From positions 10,864-74,863 of the forward strand of contig JAGYMQ010000145.1 in the NCBI GenBank assembly GCA_018400535.1: a stretch of 64,000 nucleotides of DNA. The letters are read 5' to 3'. The translations under genes and the position numbers were made by a program. The notes beneath the pieces are model-generated. The model searched no databases and was not told where the DNA came from. It was given only the letters and a program-made list of their open reading frames with translations. Source of the stretch: Candidatus Cloacimonadota bacterium (lineage in GTDB: Bacteria > Cloacimonadota > Cloacimonadia > Cloacimonadales > TCS61). This document shows, in pieces, positions 21,542 through 51,183 of this stretch. Position 1 is the first letter of the stretch. Each line of letters opens with the position of its first letter.

Positions 21542-21625
21542 TTTCCAAATCTGAATTGCAAGAAAAATTTTGGAGTTAGGTTTTAAAACAATTTTCCGAA
21601 TTTGAATTGCAAGAAAAGTTTTGAG
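21542..21625 (+). repeat. imperfect direct repeat (2 x ~33 bp) upstream of the first receiver/ATP-grasp gene
   Basis: tttccaaatctgaattgcaagaaaaattttgga (21542-21574) versus ttttccgaatttgaattgcaagaaaagttttgag (21592-21625). The identical core tgaattgcaagaaaa occurs at 21552-21566 and 21603-21617, a 51-bp offset. Confidence 0.7.
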
Positions 21626-21707
21626 GGAAGCTTCGGAAAGTGAGCTGGCATTTCTTGACAATAAAACCCACAAAAAAATTAGTCAATCAAGAAAAAAAAA
21701 GAAGAGG

Positions 21708-24677: not shown

Positions 24678-24679
24678 AG

Positions 24680-33417: not shown

Positions 33418-34794
33418 TCAACCTCTTTCAATATTTTTTTTCAAGTATTTTTCAGCATATTTATAGATGGAACCAGCTCCCATTGTGAGTACAATGTCAC
33501 CTGGTTTGATCACATCATCGATTTTTTGGATAATATCATTATTGTTTTCAATATAACAAACATTTTTGTGACCTGATTGAATAGCCGCAGCAGCGATCAT
33601 TTTGCCGCTAATGCCAGGAATTGGTTGCTCTCGAGCTGGATAGATCGGTGAGATCAGCAAGACGTCAGATTGAAAAAAAGAACGTCCAAACTCCTGATAA
33701 AAATCTCTGGTGCGGGAATAAAGATGCGGCTGGAAAACAACGACTATTCGACGATCAGTATTTTCTTTGACGCCCTTCAAAGTTGCTTCGATCTCGGTCG
33801 GATGATGAGCATAATCATCATAGAATAAAATATCGTTCACGCTTCCTTTCCATTCAAATCTGCGGAAAACGCCATTAAAATTTGCCAGTCCTTTTTCAAT
33901 GTGGGCAAAGGGAATTTCCAGTTCCAAACCGATTCCCAGTGCCAGAAGTGAATTCAAAATATTATGTTCACCCATCACGTTCAAATTTATTTTCCCCAAT
34001 TTTCTGTTTTCAAAAATTGCTGTATATCGCGATTTGAAATCTTTCATTTCAATATCACCAGCACGCAGTTTTGCCTGTTTGGAAAAGCCGTAAGTGAAAA
34101 TATCTTTCTGGATATCAGGAATGATAGACTGGATGCCTGGATCGTCCAGACAAGCGATGACGCTACCAAAGAAAGGAACTTTGTTCGCATATTCGACGAA
34201 AGCAGATTTCACGCCAGCCAGATCTTTGTAGCAATCAAGATGATCTGCTTCGATATTCGTGATGCCAGCAATGATCGGACTGAGCGTCAGAAAGGAGCGG
34301 TCAAATTCATCAGCTTCGACCACGATATATTCGCCAGAACCAAGTAAATTATTAGAGCCATAATTTTTTACTATGCCACCAACAATAACTGTCGGATCGA
34401 GATTTGCTGCAGAAAGAATGCTGCCGACCATCGAAGTTGTCGAAGTTTTTCCATGCGTGCCTGCGATGCCAATTCCATAACTCATTCGCATAATTTCAGA
34501 GAGCATTTCAGCACGGCGAATGACAGGGATCTTTTGAACAAGAGCAGCAGCAATTTCTGGATTATCATTTTGCACAGCAGAAGATTTGACGATGACATCG
34601 ACATCATTGATCAGCTTGGAATTGTGTCCTTCCACGATTTTTACGCCTTTTTTCTGCAAGTGTTTTGTGATCGGAGAAAGCTTCAGATCAGAGCCGCTGA
34701 TCACGAAACCTTGATTCAAGAGCAGCTCTGCGATCCCGCTCATTCCGATACCGCCGATGCCGACAAAATGGATCTTTTTTGTTCTACCTAACAT
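33418..34794 (-). CDS. murC: UDP-N-acetylmuramate--L-alanine ligase
   Basis: IHFVGIGGIGMSGIAELLLNQG, GIAGTHGKTSTTSM, DDYAHHPTEI. The ATG (34794-34792) abuts the TAA stop of the upstream PLD-SNF2 gene with 0 nt between them. Confidence 0.95.
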   Translation of the reverse strand: MLGRTKKIHFVGIGGIGMSGIAELLLNQGFVISGSDLKLSPITKHLQKKGVKIVEGHNSKLINDVDVIVKSSAVQNDNPEIAAALVQKIPVIRRAEMLSEIMRMSYGIGIAGTHGKTSTTSMVGSILSAANLDPTVIVGGIVKNYGSNNLLGSGEYIVVEADEFDRSFLTLSPIIAGITNIEADHLDCYKDLAGVKSAFVEYANKVPFFGSVIACLDDPGIQSIIPDIQKDIFTYGFSKQAKLRAGDIEMKDFKSRYTAIFENRKLGKINLNVMGEHNILNSLLALGIGLELEIPFAHIEKGLANFNGVFRRFEWKGSVNDILFYDDYAHHPTEIEATLKGVKENTDRRIVVVFQPHLYSRTRDFYQEFGRSFFQSDVLLISPIYPAREQPIPGISGKMIAAAAIQSGHKNVCYIENNNDIIQKIDDVIKPGDIVLTMGAGSIYKYAEKYLKKNIERG

Positions 34795-37700
34795 TTATCT
34801 GTCCTTTTTTAAAATTTCACCACAAACAAATTCTATCGGTTCAGATTTGTTTTGTGATTCTGATATAATTTCTGCCAGTTGCTCTGAATTATAAAGATAA
34901 ACTAATTCAGAAAAAAAGACATCATTATTATTCTCCAAATTAATTTTTCTTACATATTGAATTAGATGATGAGGAAAATTAACATCCAAAACCTTATTAA
35001 TCATTTCAGCATTTTCGATGAATTCTCTATTTTTAATATTTACTTTCATCAGATCCTTTATTCTAAGCTTAGCCTTTCTAATGACAGGATCGATTTTAGT
35101 TTTCTGGTTTTCACTTTTGATGCTATCTTTAAAAATTTGATTCAATTTATTAATATCTTTATAGAAATCTTCCTTTTGATTAGAACTTATTTTAGTTTCT
35201 TTTTTATTATGCTTACATCTGATTTCTGTGATAACATCTGAAAAATCTGTTTGAACATAATCACCTTTCTTAATAAATAGTTTATAAAATTCACCTGATC
35301 TGAAAAAACCATAGCTTCCATCATTTTTTTTTGCATTTTTTGATGAATGCAAACCAATCTGTAACCGTTTAATATAATCCATATACTCTGGTTTAAACTT
35401 TGCAAGTTCTTTTATTATCTGCTCAGCTTCATCGATTGTAAAATCAGTTTCTTCGGAAGCTTCCAATTCATCGATATCACGTTTATCGTAAATTGTATAT
35501 AAAGCAGATTCATTTAATCTTTCATTTTCAGTTAATATCTTTTCATCTTCACCGATATATTTATGGATTTCTTTTATTCTCTGATCTAATTTTTCTTTCA
35601 GTTTAATTTCAGATTCAACTTGAGTGACTGGAAGAAAATTTCTTATAAAAATCGTATCTGCTTCACTGCCAATTCTATCTACTCGACCAGCTCGTTGGAT
35701 CAATCTTACAGGATTCCAGTGCAGATCATAATTGATAACAGCGGAACAATCTTGAAGGTTGAAACCTTCACTTAACACATCTGTAGCTACTAAAATATCT
35801 ACAATTTTATCTCCGTTATATTCATTGGCTATGGGTGCAAAAGCACCAATTTTGGCATCGATTTGAGTACTTTGACCATTTACCAGTTCAACTTTATCGA
35901 AATCTTTTGAAAGTCGATCTGAAAGGTAATTAGTTGTATCGGCGTATTCGCTGAAGATAAGTATTTTCTTTTGATTATTATTGGTTTTTAAATCATCAAT
36001 AATCTTAGTAAGTTTATCAAATTTGGCATCATCAGAAATTGGGATATTATCCAGGAAACTGTGGACATCATTAAATATCTTCAAATCGAATTTTAAATCT
36101 TCTACAAGTTTATCAATGTTAAAATCATCAGTTTTATATTCATTTTCCAATTCTTCTACTTTCTTTAAAACTTCTTTCAATTCATTACGATAGATTATTT
36201 CCTGGATTTTTTCACCGGCAGGAACAATCTGTTTATCTTCGATGATACGAATAAATTTAGTATGAATATCGATCAAATTCAAAATACTGATCCTGAAAGC
36301 ATGAATCGAACTTTCTAATCTTTTGAACAAATTTATTTTATGAAAAACCCTTAAAGTATTAATTACTTTCTTCAGCTGAAAATAAGGCTCAATTTCCTGT
36401 TTGTCTTCAATAACATATTTCCAAAGATTATAGCGTGAATATGTTAATTTCTGTAATAACTTTTGAATTTGAGAATAAAGGTTGTGATAGGTTGTGTTGA
36501 TATTGTAAGTTTCTGTTCTTAATTCTCTCTTGGGGAAAGTTATCTGATAATCATCATTAACATAAAACTGCTTTATGTGCTTTCTAGTTCTTCGGATAAC
36601 CATATATTTCAACAATTCCGGCAATCTATATTCACCGTTTTCCACTTTTGTGAATAAATTCCTGAGGTGTGGCTCTTCCAAATTATTGGGGAAGATGTTT
36701 TCCTCTGATTGGTGGAACAATTTGATCTGATTATATATATTCCAGGGAGAAGTATTCTGAGGTGTAGCTGTCATCAATATTACTTGTTTGCCGATGAGGA
36801 AAGGCTGTAGTTCTCGATACATTTTAGTATCATTATTTCTAAAATGGTGGCTCTCATCAATTAAAACAACATCTCTGCTTTCGAATTTCTTTAAAATGCT
36901 GTTGTTATCGTAAATTCCACGATAAAGCATTCCGCGTGAAATTACTACAGCATCAAATTGGAATTTTTCTTTGAAACGATCCCACATTTCGATAAGACCA
37001 GGAGGTGAGATTATCAGCGCACGCTTGTTAAGATGTTTCAATAAACCTGCACCAATGAAAGATTTACCCAGACCAACCACATCACAGATAAAAACACCAT
37101 TATATTTTTGCAGCCATTCATTTGCCTGCATGACAGCAACTTTTTGGAAAGGGAAAAGATGCGGCATATTATCCCAGTTCCAGATCGTGGAAGATTTTCT
37201 TTCCAATGAAAACTTGGTAAGGTGATAAAGTGTAAATATGTAAATGTCATAAGGACTGATCGTCTTGAGTGCCCAGGAATTTTCGATAATTTTCTGCATG
37301 GAATCAGCAAAGGGAACAGCTTCTTTCCAAATGTCATCAAACCATTTGTTTAATTCTTCGTAATTTTTTTGACCTCGTACATAAGTATTAAGTTCAGTAT
37401 TGTGATAAAAACCACTCATGGTGAGATTGGACGAACCCACAACGGCAATTCCTTCTGAGCCGGAAGCAGTAGCAATATTTTGTTTGTATTTAAAAATATA
37501 AGCTTTGGCATGCAGCGGATATTTCGTGTAAACTTTTACTTCCAGTTTCTTGGATTTAACGAGTTCTACTAATTTCTGAATTTCTTTTTGTCTTTTAACT
37601 GAATGGGGAAGTGCTTGAATATTTTGAGTAATTTTCTGTTTGATCTCGTTTTTAAAATTCTCTTTATCGATATTTCTCTGATATTTCAATTTTGCCTGAG

Positions 37701-37944
37701 TTTCTTCCAGTTCATCCGGATGCAGAGTTTCTGCCAGTGCTTCCATTAACTGCTGATTCAAGTTTGAACCGATAAGAATCTTCGCACCATCTAACTCCTC
37801 CAGATTCTCAGAAATTTGATAGAAACCGGAAAGGTAAAGATATCCCACAGCAAATTTAACCTTTTCGCTTCCTGCCAACATGTCGTTGACTACATCTTTC
37901 AAAAACAGTTTTCTATTATCGATTATATCTGATCTACCTACCAT
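34795..37944 (-). CDS. PLD-family nuclease domain fused to SNF2/SF2 helicase (putative restriction/effector subunit)
   Basis: A single HKD motif, PLHAKAYIFKY...VVGSSNLTMSG (aa 143-177). Helicase motifs are I CDVVGLGKS (aa 287-295), II VLIDESHHF (aa 360-368), III LMTATPQN, V/VI VATDVLSEGFNLQD...NYDLHWNPVRLIQRAGRVDRIGS. About 300 aa at the C-terminus are unassigned. Confidence 0.85.
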   Translation of the reverse strand: MVGRSDIIDNRKLFLKDVVNDMLAGSEKVKFAVGYLYLSGFYQISENLEELDGAKILIGSNLNQQLMEALAETLHPDELEETQAKLKYQRNIDKENFKNEIKQKITQNIQALPHSVKRQKEIQKLVELVKSKKLEVKVYTKYPLHAKAYIFKYKQNIATASGSEGIAVVGSSNLTMSGFYHNTELNTYVRGQKNYEELNKWFDDIWKEAVPFADSMQKIIENSWALKTISPYDIYIFTLYHLTKFSLERKSSTIWNWDNMPHLFPFQKVAVMQANEWLQKYNGVFICDVVGLGKSFIGAGLLKHLNKRALIISPPGLIEMWDRFKEKFQFDAVVISRGMLYRGIYDNNSILKKFESRDVVLIDESHHFRNNDTKMYRELQPFLIGKQVILMTATPQNTSPWNIYNQIKLFHQSEENIFPNNLEEPHLRNLFTKVENGEYRLPELLKYMVIRRTRKHIKQFYVNDDYQITFPKRELRTETYNINTTYHNLYSQIQKLLQKLTYSRYNLWKYVIEDKQEIEPYFQLKKVINTLRVFHKINLFKRLESSIHAFRISILNLIDIHTKFIRIIEDKQIVPAGEKIQEIIYRNELKEVLKKVEELENEYKTDDFNIDKLVEDLKFDLKIFNDVHSFLDNIPISDDAKFDKLTKIIDDLKTNNNQKKILIFSEYADTTNYLSDRLSKDFDKVELVNGQSTQIDAKIGAFAPIANEYNGDKIVDILVATDVLSEGFNLQDCSAVINYDLHWNPVRLIQRAGRVDRIGSEADTIFIRNFLPVTQVESEIKLKEKLDQRIKEIHKYIGEDEKILTENERLNESALYTIYDKRDIDELEASEETDFTIDEAEQIIKELAKFKPEYMDYIKRLQIGLHSSKNAKKNDGSYGFFRSGEFYKLFIKKGDYVQTDFSDVITEIRCKHNKKETKISSNQKEDFYKDINKLNQIFKDSIKSENQKTKIDPVIRKAKLRIKDLMKVNIKNREFIENAEMINKVLDVNFPHHLIQYVRKINLENNNDVFFSELVYLYNSEQLAEIISESQNKSEPIEFVCGEILKKDR

Positions 37945-39008
37945 AATTTACCTTCCTCGATTTGGGAAACAAGATGCCAGTAATAAAATGCTTCGGGTGA
38001 AATTGGCTTGAGTTTATTCAATATCTTATATTTACCAACAATAGTAGTTTTTTTAATTTCATCAAGGTTTGAAGATTCTTCTCTAATTTTTGATAAATCT
38101 ATCTCTTTATTTTTTAAGATAATTGATGCTAAAAATGCTATTTTTGCAGTAGGAAGTTTTGCCTGATCAATCGAAAATGTTCTACTTAGCAAATAATTAA
38201 TTATATTTCTGCACCCAAATCTTAAAATATCTAATTGTTTATTTTTTAAAGAACCACGAAAACCTGATTGTGAGATCAAATATGATGTTTCGATGGAATC
38301 TTTTAAACAGGCTTCAATGGGATAGTTTTCTTTATTTAACTCACACTCGAAATTGTAAGAAGATTCGTAAGAAGCTTTTATTAACTGAATGTCCTTGGCA
38401 ATGTCAAACAGATTGGAGATATCAAACAGTTGTTTTATGATTCCAACTTTCCTGCTATTACTTTTATCATCAAAAGGTATCCCAATAGTATTTGGAGCAA
38501 ATGCTGCCAATTTATCTGCTAATAAAGATTCAAGGGATGGAATAATGACATTGTATTTTCTATTAGTTTCAAAAAAGGGAGTTTCAATTATCTTGGATTG
38601 AATACTTGGGAAATTGTGTTTCTTTAAAACTATATCCAATAAAATGTTTTGTGCTTCAGAATTGAATACTGAGGAATAATAGAATTTATAGTGTTTTATT
38701 AATTCGTTCTGATTTTCTCGCTTATCCTCTTCAATATTTATGAATCTGGAATTTTCAGATAAAGACATCAGTTTTGAAATATCAATTTTACCTACAATGT
38801 CTATATCTATGGATAACCTGGTTGGCTCTGGTAAAACTAATAATAAAGATGTACCACCTTTAAAGACAAAATCAAAGCCATGCTCAGTTAGTAATGATAA
38901 AAGTTCAAAGGCATAAATAGTCTTTTCTACATACTCTGAATTAGCTTTTTTATATTTTTTCCTAAAACCTTGAATGAATTCTTTTGTAAAATAAACTTCT
39001 TTTATCAT
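37938..39008 (-). CDS. AbiEii/DUF1814-type nucleotidyltransferase (type IV TA toxin-like)
   Basis: 356 aa with N-terminal FVFKGGTSLLLVLPEPTRLSIDIDIVG. This matches the GG[ST]...[DS]xD pol-beta NTase signature of the AbiEii family. ATGA overlap with the upstream AbiEi-like gene. Confidence 0.75.
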   Translation of the reverse strand: MIKEVYFTKEFIQGFRKKYKKANSEYVEKTIYAFELLSLLTEHGFDFVFKGGTSLLLVLPEPTRLSIDIDIVGKIDISKLMSLSENSRFINIEEDKRENQNELIKHYKFYYSSVFNSEAQNILLDIVLKKHNFPSIQSKIIETPFFETNRKYNVIIPSLESLLADKLAAFAPNTIGIPFDDKSNSRKVGIIKQLFDISNLFDIAKDIQLIKASYESSYNFECELNKENYPIEACLKDSIETSYLISQSGFRGSLKNKQLDILRFGCRNIINYLLSRTFSIDQAKLPTAKIAFLASIILKNKEIDLSKIREESSNLDEIKKTTIVGKYKILNKLKPISPEAFYYWHLVSQIEEGKLW

Positions 39009-39772
39009 CTTTTAATCCCGCTTGTCCCATCTACCCAATATCTCTCCATTATTGGCTGAATGGGACAATCTGCTGAATGCATTCTTCTTAGCATATAATG
39101 ATTGATCACGTCGACTTCAATGATTGATCTACCAACAATATTTTCAAAAATAATTTTGTACTCCCATTCATCAACTATAGGTAAAACATCCATTTCGATG
39201 AAAAGATCAACTAGAATTTTTTCGATTCTGGAATAATGAGATTCTACAGGTTCCCGGCTTATCGCTGGACGCAGAATAAACGTTTCAGTTTCCACATTAA
39301 ATATTTTTTCCGCTTCCGATCTGGATGGATTTAATATCACTTTTTTATTATGTATCAGCAATTTTTCATAAATTGCCTGAAGGTAGTTTTTATCGGCAAA
39401 AATGAAAACGAAAAAGCGAGTGGGAACATGATGAAAATAGGGTGCAAGCTGAGCCGTGCTCCACACGTTGAAATCGAGTAATGGAAATTCACGTTTCATT
39501 AAATTGATAATGTTTCTTACAGGCTCTTTATACAAAACAAACTTACTCTGAAGAAAAGAATACCAGCCTCTGCCAGCAGATCTTATAACTCCATCTTTTC
39601 TGAAGCGAGTAAGGTTTTTTCGCAAAGTTTCCAGATTGTAATCCGGATACTGGTTATAAAGGTCTGCTTTCAGTTTTTTAAAGCTGAAATACTGCTTACC
39701 TGTTTTTCGGTAACTTTCGATCAGGTTTAGAATTTTTTCTTTTTGCAAAATAACCTCTTTGAATTCAACCAT
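39005..39772 (-). CDS. AbiEi-like antitoxin / wHTH regulator (DUF6577-like)
   Basis: N-terminal wHTH-like segment ending in ...FRKDGVIRSAGRGWYSF. The conserved middle FPLLDFNVWSTAQLAPYFHHVP and the position immediately 5' of the AbiEii-like gene also fit. The start is set at ATG 39772 (MVEFKEV...) rather than ATG 39862, which would overlap the methyltransferase by 82 nt. Confidence 0.6.
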   Translation of the reverse strand: MVEFKEVILQKEKILNLIESYRKTGKQYFSFKKLKADLYNQYPDYNLETLRKNLTRFRKDGVIRSAGRGWYSFLQSKFVLYKEPVRNIINLMKREFPLLDFNVWSTAQLAPYFHHVPTRFFVFIFADKNYLQAIYEKLLIHNKKVILNPSRSEAEKIFNVETETFILRPAISREPVESHYSRIEKILVDLFIEMDVLPIVDEWEYKIIFENIVGRSIIEVDVINHYMLRRMHSADCPIQPIMERYWVDGTSGIKR

Positions 39773-39780
39773 TCGGAAGG

Positions 39781-42700
39781 TCAATGACCATTCCGAAGGT
39801 TTTGCTTCTTTGCCTGCATATTTCGTTCTATCGCTTCTGCCAGTTTGGGATAACGCCGCCAATACCAGTTCTCTACTTCTGCTATATCCTCCTCGTTCAA
39901 ATTATACATTTCGTAAACCAGCTTATCGATCTCGATTTGCTCGTTGGTCATATAATCGTATCTGGGATTTTGTTTTTGATTGGAAATGATAGTTGATACT
40001 AGATCGAGAATATTTTGACAATTAGCAATATGAACTAAAGTAAAATCATTGAAAGCACCAACTTGAGTATCAACAGTATGCATGATAAAATTTTTAAATA
40101 TGTATTTTGATATTTTTGAACATAGTAAACCCAGAAGAATGTTATAATCAAATTTACAAAAAATGCATGAGCTTTTATTATCAAACATTGAACTAGAATT
40201 TAATCTTATTGTTGGAGCATATACTCCTGTTAAAGAGAAAGTTAATCCTTTACTGAACCAGTATTTTTTATTTCTTAATGTAGATTTATTTTGAGTGTAA
40301 TGCTGTGCTTTTTTTAATCTTGAAACTGCTTCAGTTGACCAATCGATAAAAAAATCTGTCGGAATAAAATAATTAGGTAACCACCCTTCAGATATTTGAG
40401 AATCACCACCTTTATCATATGGGATTATATATTTCTTATTTTTCTCTTTGTTTATTCCGTTCTTTTTTTCATCCCTAGATAAATTTAAAACATCATTTTC
40501 TGAAAGTAAATATTCCGAATAATTAGTAATCAACTTATAATTACCTTTGGCTTTCGACTTTTTAAAAAGAAATTCAGAATTATTACCTGTATCAATACCC
40601 TTTTTCACATCAGCAATATCACCCAGTTTAACCAGTTCCAGTTCTTTACCGTTGAAATCAACTTTGTAAATGGTTTTACCGTCCACCATTTCGCTTCTGC
40701 CGGTATCTTCCATCAGGGCAAAGAGTTTGGGCGAAGCAATGAAGAAGCTGTGGTTGCTGAAGCGGGGAATAAGCTTCTGTTTGTAAGCGAACACGGCAAA
40801 GTCACGTTCGCTGTAAATGGTTTCACCGTCTCTGGTGCTGTCGAAATCGCTTAGTTCAGCCAGCAGTTCAAAGCCGGCTTCCAGGTTGCCGGTGTTCCAG
40901 CTACCGTTTGGCTGCTTAATTTTAAAGGGAGAAAGGTCGGCAGCTATAATGCGGTTTTCGGCATTATCGGTAAAACGCAGCCGCGGAGAAGTTCTTTTGA
41001 TAAAAGTGTAAACTCCGGTATTCACTGTTGCGCCGAAAGTATCAGCTGGAACGGAGATGAGGAATTGAGCATCGGTTTCCTTCAATAACTGGTCACGCAG
41101 ATTTTTGTGAGATTTTATCGTTTGCCAGGTATCGCTCATAATGTAGCATAGTGTGCCACCGGGTTTGAGGATTTTAAGCCCCAGAGAAACAAAAATTCCA
41201 TAGCTGTCTTTGCTGTTCAATTGGAATTCATCACGGATTTTCACATCCACTTTAATGCCGTAAGGTGGATTGGCGATAACGATGTCGAAGCCGCCATTTG
41301 CTTCGATCTCATCAAAGAAATCCAAGCCCCAGTTGAAATGTTCGGAAAGCAGATGCACATTTTCAAGCTTTTTAACAATCGCTTTGATTCGAGCCAATGA
41401 ATCTTGTTTTAAATCGAGGTTCTGTTCATCTTCTTCAAAGAAATTGCCTTGTCCCTCGGCAATGCTTTCCAGATATTTTTGTTCTTCAGCTTTCTTTTTA
41501 TTTAGAAACCAGGTCAGGTAATCGGTTTTCAATTTATTGATTTTTTGTTTTGCTTTATTTTTTTCTTCTAATTTTACAATTTTCTGAAAATCTTTTTTAG
41601 CAGTTTGAAATGATTCCAGCAGTTCTAAACCTTTTGTATCCGGTTTCAGTTTTCGTTCCTGGTCGAAATCGTATCCGGCAATTTGGGAAACGAGAGAATC
41701 TCCCTGATAAATATGAAAGTCGAGATTGGGAAGAGGTGGAATTTGTTTTATGTTATCTACTTCCAGGTCTACGATGAGAGAAAGCCATAAACGCAAGTTT
41801 GTAAGATGAACCGCTTTTTCCTGTTTGTCCACGCCGTAAATGCAGTTTTCGATAATCTCTCTTTTCAGGTTGTAGCGATAGTTTTGTTTATCTTTTACCT
41901 CAGGATTTATTTTGTTGTCGATAACGTCGATAATCTCAATTATTTTGAGTAGAATTCCCACCGGATAAGCACCGGAACCGACCGCCGGATCGACAATTCG
42001 AATGTCCAGAAGTCGTAGTTTAATCTTGTTTAATTCTTCATTCGAAAGTTTTTCAGTTTTCAAGTTGAAGACCAATTCCTTCAAGTTGCTGCGTTCAATT
42101 TCGATTGTATTATCATGTGCTAAATCATTCAGAAGAGATTGTTTAACCATGAAAGAGACGATGAATTTGGGTGTATAATATGAACCGGAAGCTCTGCGTG
42201 CATCGGGAATATCTTTATATTTTTTCTTTTCTGAACCTAGTATAAGTCGCTCGAATATTGTACCTAGCATTTCCGGATCGATGGCGATTTCTTTTTCATA
42301 TTCGGTATCTTCCCGCACAGTGAAATTATATTTTTGGAAAAGTCCCTGCAGAATTATTCGAAAATCATTATTCTTGATTCTGATCTTTTTTTCTTTGTCG
42401 GAAAATTCAAAAAGTCCACCATTCAAAAAGGGAATATCTTTAAATTCGTCCTTATCTGTATTGTTAGAAATTTTTTCAAAAAGAGGGATGAGAAAGTTTT
42501 TGTAAAAATTTTTATTCCCTATCTTATCAAAGTTATCAAAGATGTAAGTTGGATTTTTTTTCAAGTAACCTTTCTTCTGGACAAAATAAAGAAAGAAAAT
42601 GCGATTAAAAATTGTCTGAGTATGTCCATCAGCAATTGGTCGGGTAAGCTTGTTGATATTCATTATACTTTTTCGGAATTCGCGATAGAAATGAACATAA

Positions 42701-43218
42701 TCTTTATAGAAAATCCGTGAGACAGCTTCTACATCAAAAGCTTTATCATGCTTGATGTTGATCATAACAGAAGATTCTTCGTCTGATTCAATTTTAAGAA
42801 GATTTATTCGTTCAGAAGCTGTTCTTAAATTCTCAAAATGACCAATAATAATACGTCTAAAAGGTCGATAAGGAATACGACCATCAACTTTAGTTTTTTC
42901 TGCTGTTTTCAAGTTTGTGAAATGGAATTCCTGATTAACTTCATCAGCAAAAATCATAAGGTTATGGGGATATGTTTTTGATATTTGTTCTGAGATCGGT
43001 CGTTCAGTTCCTTTTAGAAGTTTTGGTAATCTACAATAAATAATCAGAAAACCATTAACTTCAGCAATCTTCTCGATAGAGGTTACTTCTTTTTGTAATT
43101 TTTCCGATAAAGCTGAAATCAAAGAACCGGAGGTATAATTATAGTTCAAATATTCGATGAACAATTTTCTATGATCTTCAAGATTTTTTAGTTGTTTAAG
43201 AACTTCGATCAAATTCAC
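39781..43218 (-). CDS. PglX/MmeI-family (Eco57I-like) gamma-class N6-adenine DNA methyltransferase with C-terminal specificity region; no recognisable nuclease domain
   Basis: 1145 aa. Motifs: IPFLNGGLFE (aa 262-271), ASGSYYTPKFIV (aa 343-354), SAM motif I VDPAVGSGAYP (aa 409-419), motif IV IANPPYG (aa 647-654), TRD entry LGDIADVKKGIDTGNN (aa 865-880), and PglX-like YIIPYDKGGDS...IDW. GTG start at 43218 is preceded by GGAGG at 8 nt and overlaps the upstream stop (GTGA). Confidence 0.85.
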   Translation of the reverse strand: MNLIEVLKQLKNLEDHRKLFIEYLNYNYTSGSLISALSEKLQKEVTSIEKIAEVNGFLIIYCRLPKLLKGTERPISEQISKTYPHNLMIFADEVNQEFHFTNLKTAEKTKVDGRIPYRPFRRIIIGHFENLRTASERINLLKIESDEESSVMINIKHDKAFDVEAVSRIFYKDYVHFYREFRKSIMNINKLTRPIADGHTQTIFNRIFFLYFVQKKGYLKKNPTYIFDNFDKIGNKNFYKNFLIPLFEKISNNTDKDEFKDIPFLNGGLFEFSDKEKKIRIKNNDFRIILQGLFQKYNFTVREDTEYEKEIAIDPEMLGTIFERLILGSEKKKYKDIPDARRASGSYYTPKFIVSFMVKQSLLNDLAHDNTIEIERSNLKELVFNLKTEKLSNEELNKIKLRLLDIRIVDPAVGSGAYPVGILLKIIEIIDVIDNKINPEVKDKQNYRYNLKREIIENCIYGVDKQEKAVHLTNLRLWLSLIVDLEVDNIKQIPPLPNLDFHIYQGDSLVSQIAGYDFDQERKLKPDTKGLELLESFQTAKKDFQKIVKLEEKNKAKQKINKLKTDYLTWFLNKKKAEEQKYLESIAEGQGNFFEEDEQNLDLKQDSLARIKAIVKKLENVHLLSEHFNWGLDFFDEIEANGGFDIVIANPPYGIKVDVKIRDEFQLNSKDSYGIFVSLGLKILKPGGTLCYIMSDTWQTIKSHKNLRDQLLKETDAQFLISVPADTFGATVNTGVYTFIKRTSPRLRFTDNAENRIIAADLSPFKIKQPNGSWNTGNLEAGFELLAELSDFDSTRDGETIYSERDFAVFAYKQKLIPRFSNHSFFIASPKLFALMEDTGRSEMVDGKTIYKVDFNGKELELVKLGDIADVKKGIDTGNNSEFLFKKSKAKGNYKLITNYSEYLLSENDVLNLSRDEKKNGINKEKNKKYIIPYDKGGDSQISEGWLPNYFIPTDFFIDWSTEAVSRLKKAQHYTQNKSTLRNKKYWFSKGLTFSLTGVYAPTIRLNSSSMFDNKSSCIFCKFDYNILLGLLCSKISKYIFKNFIMHTVDTQVGAFNDFTLVHIANCQNILDLVSTIISNQKQNPRYDYMTNEQIEIDKLVYEMYNLNEEDIAEVENWYWRRYPKLAEAIERNMQAKKQNLRNGH

Positions 43219-43778
43219 GAAATTACCTCCAGATTATATTTCGAGAGTGGTAAAGCACCTTTGTTGATCCACTTGTAATTACTTGGTTCATCCAAGATAA
43301 ACACTTTCTTTCCATTATTTACCGCTTGATCAAACAGTCTATGCAGATTTCCATTCTCTTGAATACTTATGAATAGTATTTTATTAGCTTTATCTATTAT
43401 TGCTTTGTTTCTAATATTTGTGTTTTGTTTTGATATCCTTCGTTCATTTTGCCAAAAAGACAATATTAAAATTTTATCATTATTATATTCATCGATTAAA
43501 TATTTTGGAAGCTTGTAATTTTGTATTCCTTTTGCTAAGAATATTATGACCTTTGACAATAAGTTATTTGTTCTACTTTCTAATATCTTTTTTTCCACAT
43601 TAGAATGCCAGCCACTGATAAGCGTTATTTCTTTTTTCTTTATTTCTTTTAACAAATCTGAGGCTGGAAGAAAAAGATTCATTGGAATAGTTCTGGAACA
43701 AAAAACCGCAATTGAAGATTCATTCAACAGCTCAATATTTCCCGAATAATATAGATCAGCGGAAATTTTGTAATCCAT
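43215..43778 (-). CDS. DprA/Smf-like (SLOG superfamily) Rossmann-fold protein, stand-alone
   Basis: 187 aa: GNIELLNESSIAVFCSR (cf. DprA ...AIVGSR), LISGWHSNVEKKIL (cf. SG.A.GID), IIFLAKGIQNYKLP (cf. G.d..YP), RNKAII...ILFI. It lacks the DprA N-terminal SAM and C-terminal wHTH extensions. Confidence 0.65.
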   Translation of the reverse strand: MDYKISADLYYSGNIELLNESSIAVFCSRTIPMNLFLPASDLLKEIKKKEITLISGWHSNVEKKILESRTNNLLSKVIIFLAKGIQNYKLPKYLIDEYNNDKILILSFWQNERRISKQNTNIRNKAIIDKANKILFISIQENGNLHRLFDQAVNNGKKVFILDEPSNYKWINKGALPLSKYNLEVIS

Positions 43779-43781
43779 CTA

Positions 43782-44852
43782 TCAATTCCTCAGCATCTTT
43801 TTTGCGATCATTTTTGCTGCTTCCTGATGTGGTGAAGTGGGATAATTTTTTTGAATAACATTTTTTCGTTCTTTCATTTCCAATATTTTTTCTTTCAATT
43901 TTTGCGGATCAAGTTCTTTTTGCAAAATCATATCTGCTACTTTCTTTTCTGCCAGTTCTTTGGCATTGAAATATTGGTGGTTATGAGCAGCAGTGGCGAG
44001 AGGAATAATTATACAGGGAAGTTTCTTGGTTTCAATTTCGGAAAGAGAAAGTGCACCGCCGCGGCAGATAACCATATCGACCGAATTATATATTCTGCCG
44101 ATCTGATTCTCATAATCGAAACCCCAAAGCCCTTTTTTGTTCATGATCTTCGGTAAATATTCATCAAGACTGAAAGTGCCGATCTGCCAGATGATCTCGA
44201 TATTTTGAGCTAATAAATCTTCAATTATCGGAAAAAAATTCTGGTTCAAAACATACGAGCCCTGACTGCCACCGGTCAAAAATATCTTAAAAGTGTTTTC
44301 TTGTAAATTATGTTGAAAAAAATCAATCTGCTGATTTTCTTGCAAAACGCTTTGATTAATCGGATTTCCTGAAAAAATGATTTTGTTAGCCGGCAAATAG
44401 TTTCGCGCTTCAGCATTTCCCAAAAAAATCGTTTTTGCATATTTGGAAAGGAGACGTGTTGTCATTCCAGGATAGCTATTTTGTTCCTGCAAAAAAATTG
44501 GAATTTTAGCAAGATAGGCTGCATAACCGACTGGTCCAGAAACAAAACCTCCTGTTCCCAGAAAAATATCAGGTTGAAATTCACGAATGATCTTCTTTGC
44601 TTTCCAGATACTTTTCAGCAATTTAAAAGGAAAAAGAATGTGTTTAAAAGTGAAATAACGATAAAGTTTCTGAATATCTATTCTTTCAAAATCAATGTTT
44701 TGGGAACGAACGAGTTTTTCTTCCATGCTATTTTTATTTCCCACGAAAAGGATCTTTGCATCTTTTTTCTGCAATTCTGAAATGATAGAAAGAGCGGGAA
44801 TGATATGTCCGCCTGTTCCGCCCGCAGCCACCAGAATTTTCTTTGCCGTCAT
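43782..44852 (-). CDS. murG: UDP-N-acetylglucosamine--N-acetylmuramyl-(pentapeptide) pyrophosphoryl-undecaprenol GlcNAc transferase
   Basis: ILVAAGGTGGHIIPALSI, FLTGGSQGS, MVICRGGALSLSEI. Confidence 0.93.
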   Translation of the reverse strand: MTAKKILVAAGGTGGHIIPALSIISELQKKDAKILFVGNKNSMEEKLVRSQNIDFERIDIQKLYRYFTFKHILFPFKLLKSIWKAKKIIREFQPDIFLGTGGFVSGPVGYAAYLAKIPIFLQEQNSYPGMTTRLLSKYAKTIFLGNAEARNYLPANKIIFSGNPINQSVLQENQQIDFFQHNLQENTFKIFLTGGSQGSYVLNQNFFPIIEDLLAQNIEIIWQIGTFSLDEYLPKIMNKKGLWGFDYENQIGRIYNSVDMVICRGGALSLSEIETKKLPCIIIPLATAAHNHQYFNAKELAEKKVADMILQKELDPQKLKEKILEMKERKNVIQKNYPTSPHQEAAKMIAKKMLRN

Positions 44853-48405: not shown

Positions 48406-51183
48406 TTAGATCCTGTCTAATATTTTTTCTAAACTAATGCCATGCGAAGCTTTGATCAATATTACTGCCTTTTCTGGTAATTCATTCAATTTTTGGGATG
48501 CCAGCAATTCTTCGACTTTCTTATAATGAACATCTGCTTGAAATTCTTCTGCCAGCTTTCCTACTGAGATCAGCAGATCATAATCGATCTTTTTTAATTG
48601 AGACCAGATTTTTTTATGGTAGAATTTTGTCAATTCTCCTAATTCCAGCATATCTCCAAGTATTGCAATATGAGGAAGATGCGGATGATAATCTTTCCAG
48701 AAGTTCAAAGCAGCTTGCATCGAATCAGGATTTGCATTGTAACAATCGATCAATAAATGTCGTGCCTTTTTCTTTTTTAGTTGCATTCGCCAGTTCATAG
48801 ATAATTGCTTTTGCAGTCCGGCAAAAATATTCTCGGATGGTATCTTCATCTCTTTACAAATAGCAATTGCGATCGTGGCATTCAAAACAAATTTTTCGAA
48901 AGGGGTCGGAATGGAATATTCTTCATCATTGACCAGAAATCGAGTGCTGTTTTGATCAGATTTTACTTTGGAGATCACGTAGTCATTTATTTGAGAATAG
49001 CCAAAAGTGATTCCTTCAAATTCGTTGAATTTTGAAAGATCTCCCGGGAAAAATTTTTTCTTTGGAGAGTGATGGAAGACGGCAGTTTTTTCCTGAAAAA
49101 CACCATTAATATCCTTTAGAAATTCCAGATGGGAAGCTCCGATCGCAGTTATGACAGCAAAATCGGGGCGAAGAATTGCGGTGAGTTTTTCTATTTCTCC
49201 GAAGTGATTTGAACCGAGTTCAAAAATTCCATATTTGTGTTCAGGTTTTGTTTTGAAAATAGTTTTTGGCAGTCCGATCAGATTGTTTTCATTAGCAGAA
49301 GTTTTGATGAGAGGAGTATCTATTTCCAGGATATTAGCCAGAAATTCTTTGGTTGTCGTTTTGCCGTAACTTCCCGTTATCCCGATCGAACAGAGATCAA
49401 AGAATTTTATGTATCGTTTTGCCAATTTTCCGTAAGCCTCGATTGTATCATGCACTTTGATCAAATGCGGATGAGCTAGATTGTAATTTTCGTTTACAAC
49501 CGCCCAATTCCCTTTTTCCAAAACGATATCCACAAAATCATGTCCATCAAAATTCTCGCCTTTGAAAGCGAAAAAAAGCGAATTTTTTGGAAGATTGCGC
49601 GTATCGGTGGAAATATGATAGAGCAATTGTGGACAAGGTTTGAGCTCTTTTCCAAACACGAATTCCAAAAAAAGTGGATCAACTGGAATTGACAGGTTCT
49701 CATTTTTAACTGGAGTGAATTCTTGAATGATCTTCCTGTCGCTGAAAGGCAATTTTTTGCCATTGATCTCTTGATATTCTTCGTGTCCTTTTCCAGCGAC
49801 GAGAACGATGTCTTTTTCTTTTGCCAGGCTTAGTGCTGTTTCGATAGCGCTTTTGCGGTTTTGGATGATGAGAATATTTTCTTCTGAAGTCGCATTTTGC
49901 AGAATATCTCGGATGATCTTTTCTGGAGATTCAAAGCGTGGATTATCGTTTGTGACGATTACTATTTCAGAATATTTCAGCGCACTTTTCAGCATTTCAG
50001 GACGCTTGCTTTTATCTCGATCTCCACCCGCGCCAAAAACAGTGATAATCCTGTTTGGCTGCATTTGATGCAATGTTCGCAGAACATTATCTAAGGCATC
50101 AGGTGAGTGCGCATAATCGATGAAAGCGTTTTTCTGGGTAAGTGCGATCTTTTCTAATCTGCCTTTAATAGGAGAAAGATCGGGAATTTTTTTCATGAGT
50201 TTCTCGACCTGAATATCAGGAAACAGTTCACAGCAGGCGGCAAGAGATGCCGTTAGATTGTAAATATTAAATTCACCGAGAAGAGGAGAATGCAGGGTAT
50301 AGTTTTTTTTGGCGATATTCAATTCGAAGCGAGATGAATGCAGATCATTTTCAATTTGGAAAATTTTGTAATTGGCAGCTTTTTTCCCATAAGAGATCTT
50401 TTTGCCAGTTGTTTTTGTAAATAGTTTGTTTCCAAAATCGTCATCAATGTTAATGATCTGGATTCCATCATTTTCTTTTGTATATTGGAAAAGTTTTGCT
50501 TTTTCATTGGCATATTCGAGGAGATCTTTGTGGAAGTCAAGATGATCCTGACTGATATTTGTGAAAATGGCTGCGTCAAATTTCAAAGCAAAAACGCGAT
50601 CTAAAGCTAAAGCATGTGAAGAAACTTCCATGATTACAGCTTCGACTTTTTTAGCCACGAATTCAACAAATATCTCATTCAATTCGATAATGTCTGGAGT
50701 AGTTCTTTCTGTTTGAAATTCTCTGTCTCCGAGCTTGAAACCGAAAGTGCCGATCAATCCAACTTTTTTATCAAAATTCAATATTTGATAGAGCAAGTTT
50801 GTGACTGTTGTTTTGCCGTTCGTGCCAGTAACTCCGATCAATTTGAATTTGTCGGTTGGATCATCGAAAAATAATTTTGCCAGAATTGCTGCAGCTTTTC
50901 GCGCATCAGAAACGAGGATCTGCGGAATTTTTAGATTTAATTTTCTGGTAACGATGAGCAGTTCAGCTCCGTTTAAGACAGCATCCTCAGCGAAATTATG
51001 GCCATCTTGTTCAAATCCTTTTATGCAAATAAAAATAGAGTGTTTTTCAACTTTTCGAGAATCGGTGCAGATTTTTTTTAGTATTCTATCATCTTTTTCC
51101 AAAACCATTTGTTTTATTAATGAGTATTTTTGCAGATTTTGGATAATTTCGGACGTTTTCACAGATCGGCATTGATCTTGCAT
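48406..51183 (-). CDS. murE/murF: fused MurE (UDP-MurNAc-tripeptide synthetase) / MurF (UDP-MurNAc-pentapeptide synthetase)
   Basis: A single 925-aa ORF with two complete Mur-ligase modules. MurE-like: ICTDSRKVEKHSIFICIKGFEQDGHNF, GVTGTNGKTT, GKGHEEYQ. MurF-like: ISTDTRNLPKNSLFFAFKGENFDGHDF, GITGSYGKTTTKE, DCYNANPDSM. Confidence 0.88.
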   Translation of the reverse strand: MQDQCRSVKTSEIIQNLQKYSLIKQMVLEKDDRILKKICTDSRKVEKHSIFICIKGFEQDGHNFAEDAVLNGAELLIVTRKLNLKIPQILVSDARKAAAILAKLFFDDPTDKFKLIGVTGTNGKTTVTNLLYQILNFDKKVGLIGTFGFKLGDREFQTERTTPDIIELNEIFVEFVAKKVEAVIMEVSSHALALDRVFALKFDAAIFTNISQDHLDFHKDLLEYANEKAKLFQYTKENDGIQIINIDDDFGNKLFTKTTGKKISYGKKAANYKIFQIENDLHSSRFELNIAKKNYTLHSPLLGEFNIYNLTASLAACCELFPDIQVEKLMKKIPDLSPIKGRLEKIALTQKNAFIDYAHSPDALDNVLRTLHQMQPNRIITVFGAGGDRDKSKRPEMLKSALKYSEIVIVTNDNPRFESPEKIIRDILQNATSEENILIIQNRKSAIETALSLAKEKDIVLVAGKGHEEYQEINGKKLPFSDRKIIQEFTPVKNENLSIPVDPLFLEFVFGKELKPCPQLLYHISTDTRNLPKNSLFFAFKGENFDGHDFVDIVLEKGNWAVVNENYNLAHPHLIKVHDTIEAYGKLAKRYIKFFDLCSIGITGSYGKTTTKEFLANILEIDTPLIKTSANENNLIGLPKTIFKTKPEHKYGIFELGSNHFGEIEKLTAILRPDFAVITAIGASHLEFLKDINGVFQEKTAVFHHSPKKKFFPGDLSKFNEFEGITFGYSQINDYVISKVKSDQNSTRFLVNDEEYSIPTPFEKFVLNATIAIAICKEMKIPSENIFAGLQKQLSMNWRMQLKKKKARHLLIDCYNANPDSMQAALNFWKDYHPHLPHIAILGDMLELGELTKFYHKKIWSQLKKIDYDLLISVGKLAEEFQADVHYKKVEELLASQKLNELPEKAVILIKASHGISLEKILDRI

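Follow-up and report, generated by a model that had tools for sequence, protein, structure and literature searches.

A five-gene methyltransferase and PLD-SNF2 cassette with an embedded AbiE pair in the dcw operon of Cloacimonadota

Organization of the locus

The sequence analysed here is a 64,000-nt stretch of a Candidatus Cloacimonadota genome (assembly GCA_018400535.1, contig JAGYMQ010000145.1, positions 10,864 to 74,863), referred to below as the window. It carries the division and cell wall (dcw) genes on the minus strand in the order mraZ, rsmH, ftsI, a murE-murF fusion, mraY, murD, ftsW and murG. These are followed by five further genes and then, on the same strand, by murC, murB, ftsQ, ftsA and ftsZ (all dcw genes assigned with Pfam). 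The five genes form a cassette of 8,984 nt (34795-43778, minus strand) which fills the slot between murG and murC with closely packed, co-oriented reading frames. They encode a DprA-like protein, an N6-adenine DNA methyltransferase, an AbiEi/AbiEii pair and a protein (PLD-SNF2) in which a phospholipase D (PLD) type nuclease is fused to an SNF2 motor. The genes and their two anchors are as follows (window coordinates; lengths in amino acids, aa):

43782-44852, minus strand: murG, the upstream anchor of the slot (Pfam Glyco_transf_28 N- and C-terminal domains)
43215-43778, minus strand: DprA-like gene, first in the cassette, 187 aa (Pfam DNA_processg_A, 9.5e-12)
39781-43218, minus strand: methyltransferase gene, second, 1145 aa (Pfam Eco57I/MmeI_Mtase, 6.8e-26)
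39005-39772, minus strand: AbiEi-like (DUF6577) gene, third, 255 aa from its ATG (Pfam DUF6577, 9e-34)
37938-39008, minus strand: AbiEii gene, fourth, 356 aa (Pfam AbiEii, 1.6e-15)
34795-37944, minus strand: PLD-SNF2 gene, fifth, 1049 aa (Pfam PLDc_2, RE_NgoFVII, SNF2-rel_dom and Helicase_C)
33418-34794, minus strand: murC, the downstream anchor of the slot (Pfam Mur_ligase N, M and C domains)

The murG stop leads into the DprA-like gene as TGA-TAG-ATG. The DprA-like and methyltransferase genes share 4 nt, as do the AbiEi and AbiEii genes, and the AbiEii and PLD-SNF2 genes share 7 nt. Eight nucleotides (CCTTCCGA) lie between the methyltransferase stop and the AbiEi ATG, and the TAA of PLD-SNF2 abuts the murC ATG with 0 nt between. 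An earlier, sequence-only reading of the window had described these five same-strand genes and each of their junctions, and coordinates and sequence agree with it throughout; Pfam also bears out its domain calls for the five proteins. It had seen no integrase, transposase, tRNA gene or flanking direct repeat, and none was found in our scans. The window contains no tRNA gene, the neighbouring genes scanned in it are all housekeeping genes and include no integrase, transposase or recombinase, and no direct, inverted or att-like repeat convincingly flanks the cassette, all matches being short and of low identity. In base composition the cassette is richer in AT than its surroundings, with a G+C fraction of ~0.28-0.36 (and a single interior peak of 0.42) against ~0.37-0.41 in the flanks.

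The methyltransferase and the PLD-SNF2 protein

The second gene encodes a gamma-class N6-adenine DNA methyltransferase of the PglX/MmeI family with a C-terminal target-recognition domain (TRD; Pfam Eco57I and MmeI_Mtase). The fifth encodes a putative restriction effector that joins an HKD (PLD) nuclease to a Swi2/Snf2 translocase and resembles RapA in its C-terminal region. The catalytic motifs of both proteins are intact:

41971-41991, minus strand: S-adenosylmethionine-binding motif I of the methyltransferase, DPAVGSG, aa 410-416 (D410, G414, S415 and G416 invariant in the family alignment)
41260-41271, minus strand: catalytic motif IV of the methyltransferase, NPPY, aa 650-653 (N650, P651, P652 and Y653 invariant; aligns to the NPPY region of M.TaqI)
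39919-40668, minus strand: target-recognition region of the methyltransferase, aa 851-1100 (swapped between lineages)
37504-37512, minus strand: single HKD motif of PLD-SNF2, H145-x-K147 (H145, K147 and G170-S-S-N173 invariant in 27 homologues)
36847-37074, minus strand: PLD-SNF2 helicase motifs I (GLGK, aa 291-294) to II (DESH, aa 363-366) (invariant in the alignment)

The AlphaFold2 (AF2) model of the methyltransferase (predicted local distance difference test 81, predicted template modelling score 0.79) is matched best, and almost over its full length, by the BREX protein PglX/BrxX (8c45 and 9ewz, ~1050-1145 columns), which ranks ahead of CamA, M.BseCI, MmeI, DrdV and BpuSI. By family score the assignment is less specific. 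PADLOC returns only generic Type IIG, PglX and DrmMI models, and the score against NCBIfam BREX_1_MTaseX is 118 bits for a cut-off of 500, while the fold is PglX-like. Alignments of 41 and 27 homologues show neither an acidic/lysine triad nor a D...ExK motif conserved in residues 1-160. The enzyme is therefore unlikely to contain a nuclease, and a cryptic N-terminal PD-ExK nuclease was rejected on conservation and fold. The window protein and the methyltransferase of Ca. Cloacimonas sp. SDB (locus L001; loci related to the window carry L numbers) are 84-98% identical in the segment 501-850 (94-98% in 651-850) and 77% in the segment 1101-1145, but only 28-46% in aa 851-1100, which lie between them. 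The divergence of aa 851-1100 is a classic TRD swap between the two genomes.

PLD-SNF2 has the full set of SF2 motifs, of which TATP (392-395) and QRxGRxDR (750-757) are also invariant in the same alignment. Each chain has a single HKD motif; one active site needs a dimer. The best PADLOC match, over the full length, is C3a139 'HKD+Snf2' (5e-63), an uncharacterised family noted beside type III CRISPR loci (PMC6546367). Pfam RE_NgoFVII matches at 3.5e-6. The AF2 model matches SNF2 remodellers, RapA (full length), SauUSI (7clg, 809 aligned columns) and ZorD. Pfam and fold searches revealed no reader domain of the SRA, PUA or DUF3427 type in the C-terminal region.

The DprA-like protein and the AbiE pair

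The DprA-like protein consists of a Rossmann domain only (residues 9-167 of 187 aligned to Pfam DNA_processg_A, PF02481). It is not a canonical DprA with SAM, Rossmann and winged-helix domains: the equivalog model TIGR00732 gives 33 bits for a cut-off of 191. PADLOC relates it to PsyrA (1.1e-12) and ShosA (6e-5), the latter a DprA-like binder of single-stranded DNA (PMC11961720). In every locus that has it (18/18), including viral loci of reversed gene order, the DprA-like gene adjoins the methyltransferase gene. Iterated hidden Markov models found the DprA-like protein in these 18 loci and the AbiE proteins in 14-15 loci only. Both are therefore clade-specific accessories and not universal core genes.

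The third and fourth genes belong to AbiE by sequence, with an AbiEi (winged helix-turn-helix antitoxin) beside an AbiEii (DUF1814 nucleotidyltransferase). The AbiEi-like protein matches PADLOC AbiEi (9e-32) and scores only 16.8 against NCBIfam TAA_AbiEi, for which the cut-off is 150. AbiEii matches its PADLOC model over the full length (2.8e-92) and carries the GGTS...DIDI nucleotidyltransferase motif of the Pol-beta type. AbiEi is 84% identical between the window and L001, unlike AbiEii, for which identity is 42% between these two, 44% between the window and another Cloacimonadota locus (L028), and 70% between L001 and L028. The AbiEii allele has been exchanged between lineages.

In two divergent lineages, each with a cassette in the dcw slot, the methyltransferase and AbiEi/DUF6577 are fused naturally and in frame into proteins of 1379-1390 aa (L195:773-4912 and L198:2402-6574; P0136 and P0137). 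The fusions were seen in several samples. At the fusion point the end of the methyltransferase (...WYWRRYPKLAEAIE) continues straight into the AbiEi N-terminus. Together with the TRD swap, these fusions argue for an active, integrated role in defence.

The same slot in Cloacimonadota relatives

The slot was compared across related genomes by anchoring on MurC, with one genome per GTDB species, and 22 Cloacimonadota loci could be placed. Among named relatives, Ca. Tenebribacter and Ca. Cloacimonas sp. SDB are nearest. In ~14 relatives murG and murC are contiguous, 11-38 nt apart; the insertion in the window is therefore beyond chance. The same five genes occupy the same slot in at least seven further Cloacimonadota lineages. 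Full cassettes are present in L001/L014 (Ca. Cloacimonas sp. SDB), L164, L169-172, L195-197 and L198, and on the partial contigs L176 and L166 the distal cassette genes adjoin murC. Identical junctions in independent assemblies rule out an assembly chimera.

Several loci record stages of loss. In Ca. Tenebribacter burtonii (JAVCCF010000103, L010:9526-10000) the gap between murG and murC measures 475 nt and holds three pieces of the cassette: ~45 codons from the start of the DprA-like gene, an N-terminal remnant of AbiEii, and the final ~30 codons of PLD-SNF2, which stop just short of murC. This gap is a deletion scar of the cassette. In another genome (DAISYT010000174, L028:2476-4285) the slot holds AbiEi and AbiEii only, with clean junctions on both sides, and the L166 cassette has lost AbiEii. 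In a population variant in the dcw operon (L170:9809-18196) the methyltransferase is truncated or frameshifted and PLD-SNF2 is split into open reading frames (ORFs) of 358 and 678 aa, either through ongoing pseudogenisation or through assembly error.

In MurC and concatenated trees the carriers are scattered through one clade, and presence is patchy even among close relatives. The window and L001 share 84% identity in PLD-SNF2 and only 71% in MurC. With L169 and L166 the order is reversed: MurC is closer (78% and 76%) and PLD-SNF2 more distant (71%). This incongruence indicates lateral movement of the cassette, or of parts of it, between lineages without a change of address, probably through recombination in the conserved flanks, murG and murC. 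The cassette appears to be a long-term resident of the murG-murC slot in one Cloacimonadota clade, subject to decay in some lineages and to recombination between them, a history that the sequence-only reading had not seen.

The murG-murC junction has other occupants elsewhere. In two Ignavibacteria loci (L023:9511-9993 and L032:9032-9538) a conserved gene for a predicted membrane protein of ~160 aa lies between murG and murC, accompanied in L032 by a second small membrane protein. From the two loci examined, the junction is not universally tight in the FCB group.

Recurrence outside the dcw operon

The five genes recur in the same order outside the dcw operon in four unrelated contexts (L167, L173-175/L178, L177 and L179), some of these loci having extra small genes after the methyltransferase. 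Three-gene forms without AbiE are found beside phage-like genes (L003) and in an Aminicenantes genome (L085). Two IMG/VR contigs classed as viral carry the trio in the order PLD-SNF2, methyltransferase, DprA-like (L185:9992-17038 and L193:8034-15115), with ~30% identity to the window proteins, which suggests that the core system is carried by phage or prophage.

The most widespread association is that of the methyltransferase with PLD-SNF2. PLD-SNF2 homologue loci drawn from many bacterial and archaeal phyla have a methyltransferase within 6 kb in 54 of 79 GTDB cases, always on the same strand (54/54). When only loci with at least 6 kb on both flanks are counted, the figure is 32 of 39, again on the same strand. 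The pair is also known from plasmids and IMG/VR contigs. Clustering of the related loci yielded no other widely recurrent neighbour family. A metagenome scan with a single protein query returned 5 loci only.

The partner itself can be replaced. In a Nitrosopumilus sp. (OZ241857, L146:13273-16314) the gene that begins 3 nt after a PLD-SNF2 homologue encodes a protein of 1013 aa with the domains ISP_coupler, N6_Mtase and Type_ISP_C. This pairing would amount to a 'split Type ISP' system with an HKD-Snf2 restriction (R) subunit. The exchange indicates that PLD-SNF2 acts like an R subunit for which different methyltransferase-TRD subunits can serve as partner.

The interval between the modification (M) and R genes also holds variable cargo. 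In the clade with at least 57% identity in PLD-SNF2, nearly all members have AbiEi/AbiEii in this position; L003, which is nested in the clade, has lost the pair. A Thermococcus profundus plasmid (NZ_CP014863, L199:1-10360) has genes for a methyltransferase and a hypothetical protein, together with an AbiEii/AbiGii-family toxin gene that overlaps a PLD-SNF2 homologue (34% identity), so that the linkage of AbiEii to PLD-SNF2 exists in an archaeon as well. In other phyla the cargo consists of MNT+HEPN (PDC-M05), a PIN protein with a 79-aa partner, Uma2 (PDC-S03), YhcG (PDC-S02), AAA_14-DUF4143 (PDC-S01), DUF5131 or Schlafen-AlbA_2. The loci with such alternative cargo, other than Schlafen-AlbA_2, are L087, L095, L097, L102 and L140; L098, L110, L111 and L153; L121; L117; and L156.

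Expression and the murC boundary

The gene overlaps and gaps of 0-8 nt, a murC ribosome-binding site inside PLD-SNF2 and terminator matches below chance suggest that the cassette is co-transcribed with the dcw genes. The ribosome-binding element was read from the sequence:

34802-34806, minus strand: AAGGA, a Shine-Dalgarno-like element for murC within the last PLD-SNF2 codons

A comparable purine-rich element stands ahead of murC whether or not a genome carries the cassette. Terminator-like matches number 5, fewer than the 8.1 expected from shuffled sequence; within the cassette interval there is one on the coding strand, and it is weak. The element TTATATAAT (34885-34895, minus strand), with a perfect -10 hexamer, lies ~95 nt upstream of the murC ATG and does not vary among all seven cassette lineages, the L010 scar being one of them. 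A role as a promoter element of murC is conceivable, but AT-rich Leu-Tyr-Asn codons are an equally good explanation.

Other features of the window

The fused murE-murF gene is a 925-aa ORF (48406-51183, minus strand) with two sets of Mur-ligase middle and C-terminal domains. Such a MurE-MurF fusion is also found in related loci, for example as a 983-aa protein in L169. The murB gene is missing between murC and ftsQ in Ca. Cloacimonas sp. SDB (L001:13154-15428) and in some other Cloacimonadales (for example L016 and L017); it is present in the window and in closer relatives. On the plus strand, opposite to the dcw genes and just beyond their downstream end (21621-27655), are two tandem paralogous ORFs of ~1000 aa with PPDK_N (PEP-utilising, ATP-binding) domains, the first of which also has a weak match to a response-regulator receiver.

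Proposed mechanism and rival explanations

We favour, with a probability of about 0.62, the view that the locus is a composite anti-phage or anti-plasmid cassette, long resident in its dcw slot, with a core of methyltransferase and PLD-SNF2 to which accessory or backup modules have been joined. This view builds directly on the anatomy of the locus, the intact catalytic motifs, the synteny, the exchanges of TRD and toxin allele, the methyltransferase-AbiEi fusions and the products of decay.

The core would act as a two-subunit, ATP-dependent module resembling a restriction-modification (R-M) system. Its PglX/MmeI-type methyltransferase would read a short, probably asymmetric site through its own C-terminal TRD and mark host adenines. 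PLD-SNF2 would be recruited or licensed at unmarked sites, translocate by ATP hydrolysis and cut once two protomers unite their single HKD motifs, by analogy with MtsD of MANTIS, SauUSI and Type ISP/III enzymes. An HKD-dimer mechanism has been proposed for MtsD (10.64898/2026.09.23.753747). The DprA-like protein, translationally coupled to the methyltransferase, would be an accessory, perhaps a methyltransferase cofactor or a sensor of single-stranded DNA or nucleotides. The AbiE pair in the M-R cargo slot could serve as a backup abortive-infection toxin or as a stabilising addiction module. AbiEii may be tethered through AbiEi to the methyltransferase and released when the methyltransferase complex is attacked, following the logic of PrrC and EcoprrI; such a guard relationship may be read from the synteny and from the methyltransferase-AbiEi fusions. 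The sequence-only reading had likewise supposed that the methyltransferase marks self DNA, that PLD-SNF2 is the effector and that the other proteins are accessory or backup modules. This scheme fits the comparative data (the conserved pair, the TRD swap and the toxin-antitoxin-like cargo). None of the outcomes that the sequence-only reading had named as fatal to its view came about: no tool gives the set an existing system name, the genes occur together in other genomes and contexts, and the relatives speak against a chimera.

A number of points weigh against this interpretation. We infer methylation, restriction, toxicity, guard coupling and the transcript structure, with its co-transcription of murC-ftsZ, from sequence. 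The cassette lies outside any defence island, and the other window genes examined are housekeeping genes. The methyltransferases of MANTIS and BREX need an AAA+ ATPase and other partners that are absent here, so that the autonomy of the PglX-like enzyme is an assumption, and MANTIS restriction itself has not been reconstituted in vitro (10.64898/2026.09.23.753747). Seven of the 39 fully flanked PLD-SNF2 loci have no methyltransferase within 6 kb. L028, L166 and L003 demonstrate that the AbiE pair and the M/R pair can be lost separately and are not obligately interdependent. Finally, a sigma-70 promoter scan, which is uninformative for this phylum, gave 51 matches for 44.8 ± 6.9 expected; at this chance level neither expression by read-through only nor internal promoters can be claimed.

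The cassette might instead be a selfish addiction unit, in which the M/R pair and AbiE are kept by post-segregational killing and by the risk of deletions in an essential operon, with no net protection against phage. Its position among housekeeping genes and outside a defence island would suit such a unit, as would the persistence of the AbiE pair alone in L028 and the stepwise decay visible in the fragment of L166, the frameshifts of L170 and the scar of L010, whose retained cassette ends fit constraints on murG and murC expression. We nevertheless hold this to be unlikely. TRD replacement and toxin-allele exchange point to the diversifying selection typical of active defence, the gene pair is widespread across phyla, plasmids and IMG/VR contigs, and clean losses are frequent (murG and murC are contiguous in ~14 relatives), so that any addiction would be weak. 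It is considerably more doubtful that the genes have been domesticated by the host and are co-regulated with division genes, the methyltransferase serving in epigenetic or cell-cycle regulation and the RapA-like SNF2 protein in transcription or repair. Long retention in the dcw operon, the apparent translational coupling to murC, the full-length alignment of the PLD-SNF2 model with RapA and the presence of a DprA-like single-stranded-DNA-binding protein would all be understandable on these terms. However, a TRD swap would rewire any regulon, the HKD nuclease motif does not vary, and one of the embedded genes encodes an abortive-infection toxin. Even close relatives differ in whether they have the cassette, and the same five genes occur in unrelated contexts outside the dcw operon.

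A modification-dependent (Type IV-like) nuclease, by which PLD-SNF2 would act on modified foreign DNA in the manner of SauUSI while the methyltransferase is an orphan or unrelated, seems to us slightly more improbable again. The shared layout of PLD and SF2 helicase, the structural match to 7clg over 809 aligned columns and the 7 of 39 loci without a methyltransferase within 6 kb speak for it. On the other side, the linkage to an N6-adenine methyltransferase with a TRD is consistent (54/54 on the same strand, with overlapping or abutting stops and starts), the partner swap to a Type ISP-like M-TRD protein in L146 still leaves a methyltransferase as the partner, and the C-terminal region gave no match to an SRA-, PUA- or DUF3427-type reader in Pfam and fold searches. 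We give least credence to the idea that the cassette is a degenerate, non-functional remnant of a larger BREX, MANTIS or DISARM locus from which the ATPase, PglZ or DrmAB has been lost. Its components do resemble PglX, MtsD/DrmD and DrmC, and the defining partners of those systems are missing from the window. But the reduced gene set is conserved with intact motifs over dozens of loci spanning phyla, no neighbour of the DUF499, PglZ or DrmA/B type was present in any locus examined, and every ORF of the cassette is full length.

Within the interpretation of the locus as a composite defence cassette, a broader proposal is made only tentatively. The PglX-type methyltransferase and the HKD-Snf2 protein, with or without the DprA-like protein, might constitute an unnamed, widespread minimal restriction family without an AAA+ loader, in which the M-R interval is a docking slot for suicide toxins guarded by the methyltransferase, and of which one unit became fixed inside the dcw operon of a single Cloacimonadota clade. 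If so, the toxins in this slot (AbiE, MNT-HEPN, PIN and others) would represent a generalised guard of the PrrC type, with the fusions as its physical trace, and the minimal family would span bacteria, archaea, plasmids and viral contigs. Transcription of murC-ftsZ would run through an immune cassette, alleles would be exchanged through the murG and murC flanks, and the dcw operon, the most conserved of bacterial operons, would be a defence hotspot.

A compact relative of BREX, MANTIS and DISARM with two to three genes offers a model for the contribution of the AAA+ ATPase and for the autonomy of PglX-like enzymes. The repeated embedding of toxin-antitoxin toxins, together with the methyltransferase-AbiEi fusions, provides a testable case of 'guarded' restriction beyond EcoprrI-PrrC. 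A cassette that is maintained, recombined and decaying between murG and murC indicates that even the dcw operon can be a hotspot of integration and exchange, which bears on models of operon evolution. Such a locus would be missed by defence-island finders that rely on neighbouring defence genes. Annotation pipelines label the methyltransferase 'Type IIG R-M' and the remainder 'helicase-related' or 'hypothetical', and thereby hide the system.

Comparison with known systems

Neither PADLOC nor NCBIfam models assign the M/R pair to a named family, and only AbiEi/AbiEii is called as a known pair. The sequence-only reading had found no fit to Type I, Type III, BREX or DISARM systems, a view which the missing defining components uphold, and had called the cassette undescribed. 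That description may hold for the five-gene set, which no tool assigns to a named system. It does not hold for the parts, since AbiE is known, and MANTIS/Gao_RL, DISARM class 1 and Type ISP/III enzymes follow the same logic as the methyltransferase with its PLD-helicase. Our literature search, whose coverage was incomplete and which is weak evidence, produced no report of a defence system in a dcw operon or of this five-gene set.

MANTIS (Gao_RL, a BREX-related 'BR' system of type 2) is the closest characterised system. Like the cassette, it combines a self-defining N6-adenine methyltransferase with an effector made up of an N-terminal HKD nuclease and an SF2 helicase, and the window protein has the same domain order. 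The effector, MtsD, is SauUSI-like and dimeric with one PLD site (10.64898/2026.09.23.753747; PMC12839542). The likeness of PLD-SNF2 to MtsD is one of architecture, with weak family scores: the match to PADLOC PLD_Helicase is partial (5.6e-24), and NCBIfam 'phospholipD_antiphage' (NF042964) gives 139 bits for a cut-off of 1100. The DUF499 AAA+ ATPase of MANTIS (MtsA) is found neither in the window nor in related loci; in 80 of the latter the methyltransferase is the one recurrent protein of ~1000 aa, and no DUF499-like ATPase recurs. The DUF3780 protein (MtsB) is also absent, and the small first gene of the cassette is DprA-like (PF02481) instead. The methyltransferase here is by its fold of the BREX-1 PglX type with a C-terminal TRD, whereas BR systems have a nested TRD.

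The methyltransferase of the cassette resembles that of BREX type 1: PglX is its best full-length fold match, and it has the NPPY motif of the gamma class and a swappable C-terminal TRD. In place of PglZ, BrxC, BrxB, BrxA and BrxL, however, the cassette has a nuclease-helicase. PglZ had no match among the five proteins (PADLOC and Pfam) or the other window ORFs scanned, and the BrxC/PglY AAA+ ATPase is absent from the window and related loci, which sets the cassette apart from BREX of types 1-6. DISARM class 1 (DrmD SNF2, DrmMI, DrmA, DrmB and DrmC PLD) also brings together an SNF2 helicase, a PLD nuclease and an N6-adenine methyltransferase, and cassette proteins match PADLOC DrmD (2.6e-38) and DrmMI (1.1e-20), with an NCBIfam DrmD score of 139 for a cut-off of 610. 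Unlike in DISARM, PLD and SNF2 are fused and the core proteins DrmA and DrmB (DUF1998) are absent; the DrmA model gives a weak, partial match to the helicase core only, and DrmB none (PADLOC). A search for a hidden DUF499, PglZ or DrmAB partner in the window and among the large neighbours of related loci was negative.

Several R-M types can be set aside. HsdR and HsdS have no match (Pfam and PADLOC), which rules out Type I. Type III is ruled out by a gamma-class, Eco57I/PglX-like methyltransferase in place of a beta-class Mod and by an N-terminal HKD in place of a PD-(D/E)xK nuclease; the ResIII match is marginal (22.3 bits, cut-off 22.5). Single-chain Type IIG/IIL (MmeI-like) enzymes are ruled out by the lack of an N-terminal D...ExK and by the nuclease-less PglX as the best fold, and the PADLOC Type IIG matches are due to shared methyltransferase and helical regions. 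The lack of a nuclease domain in the methyltransferase, also proposed from sequence at the outset, agrees with this. Type ISP/III systems resemble the cassette in combining a nuclease and an SF2 translocase with a methyltransferase and TRD. They differ in using Mrr or PD-(D/E)xK nucleases where the cassette has HKD/PLD and a Swi2/Snf2 motor, and the two polypeptides are unlike ISP. HmaA is an Snf2 helicase with a C-terminal PD-(D/E)xK nuclease, and HmaC is a DUF499 ATPase. Hma is ruled out: the PADLOC HmaA model matches the helicase core only (aa 457-761, 9e-25), the nuclease is an N-terminal HKD, and there is no DUF499. SauUSI (Type IV) and CglI/NgoAVII are, like PLD-SNF2, ATP-dependent PLD nucleases coupled to SF2 motors. 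SauUSI contains its own reader of modified DNA and needs no methyltransferase; CglI/NgoAVII systems have the PLD and the ATPase on different proteins and a C5 methyltransferase as their partner.

The accessory genes have relatives of their own. PsyrTA and ShosTA share the DprA-like Rossmann protein, which matches the PsyrA and ShosA models, but no cassette protein matches PsyrT (RecQ-like) or ShosT (a phosphoribosyltransferase), and here the protein is a Rossmann domain only whose gene is always beside that of the methyltransferase. AbiE type IV toxin-antitoxin systems have the same pair of DUF6577/AbiEi and AbiEii nucleotidyltransferase with overlapping stop and start. In the cassette, unlike in AbiE, the pair is without an intergenic promoter region of its own, is embedded between M and R and is sometimes fused through AbiEi to the methyltransferase. 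Embedding of suicide effectors or defence genes between modification and restriction genes is known from EcoprrI-PrrC and from Hma operons. The effector in EcoprrI is the anticodon nuclease PrrC, where the cassette has the AbiEii nucleotidyltransferase. The EcoprrI R-M enzyme keeps PrrC latent, and a phage anti-restriction factor activates it (PMC1484252). Insertions are present in ~66% of hma operons (PMC11232893), and backup effectors have been described in BREX and BREX-related loci (PMC12839542). We would accordingly file the cassette as a probable methylation-based restriction system with an embedded backup toxin, that is, as only moderately new in kind, in an unusual genomic position.

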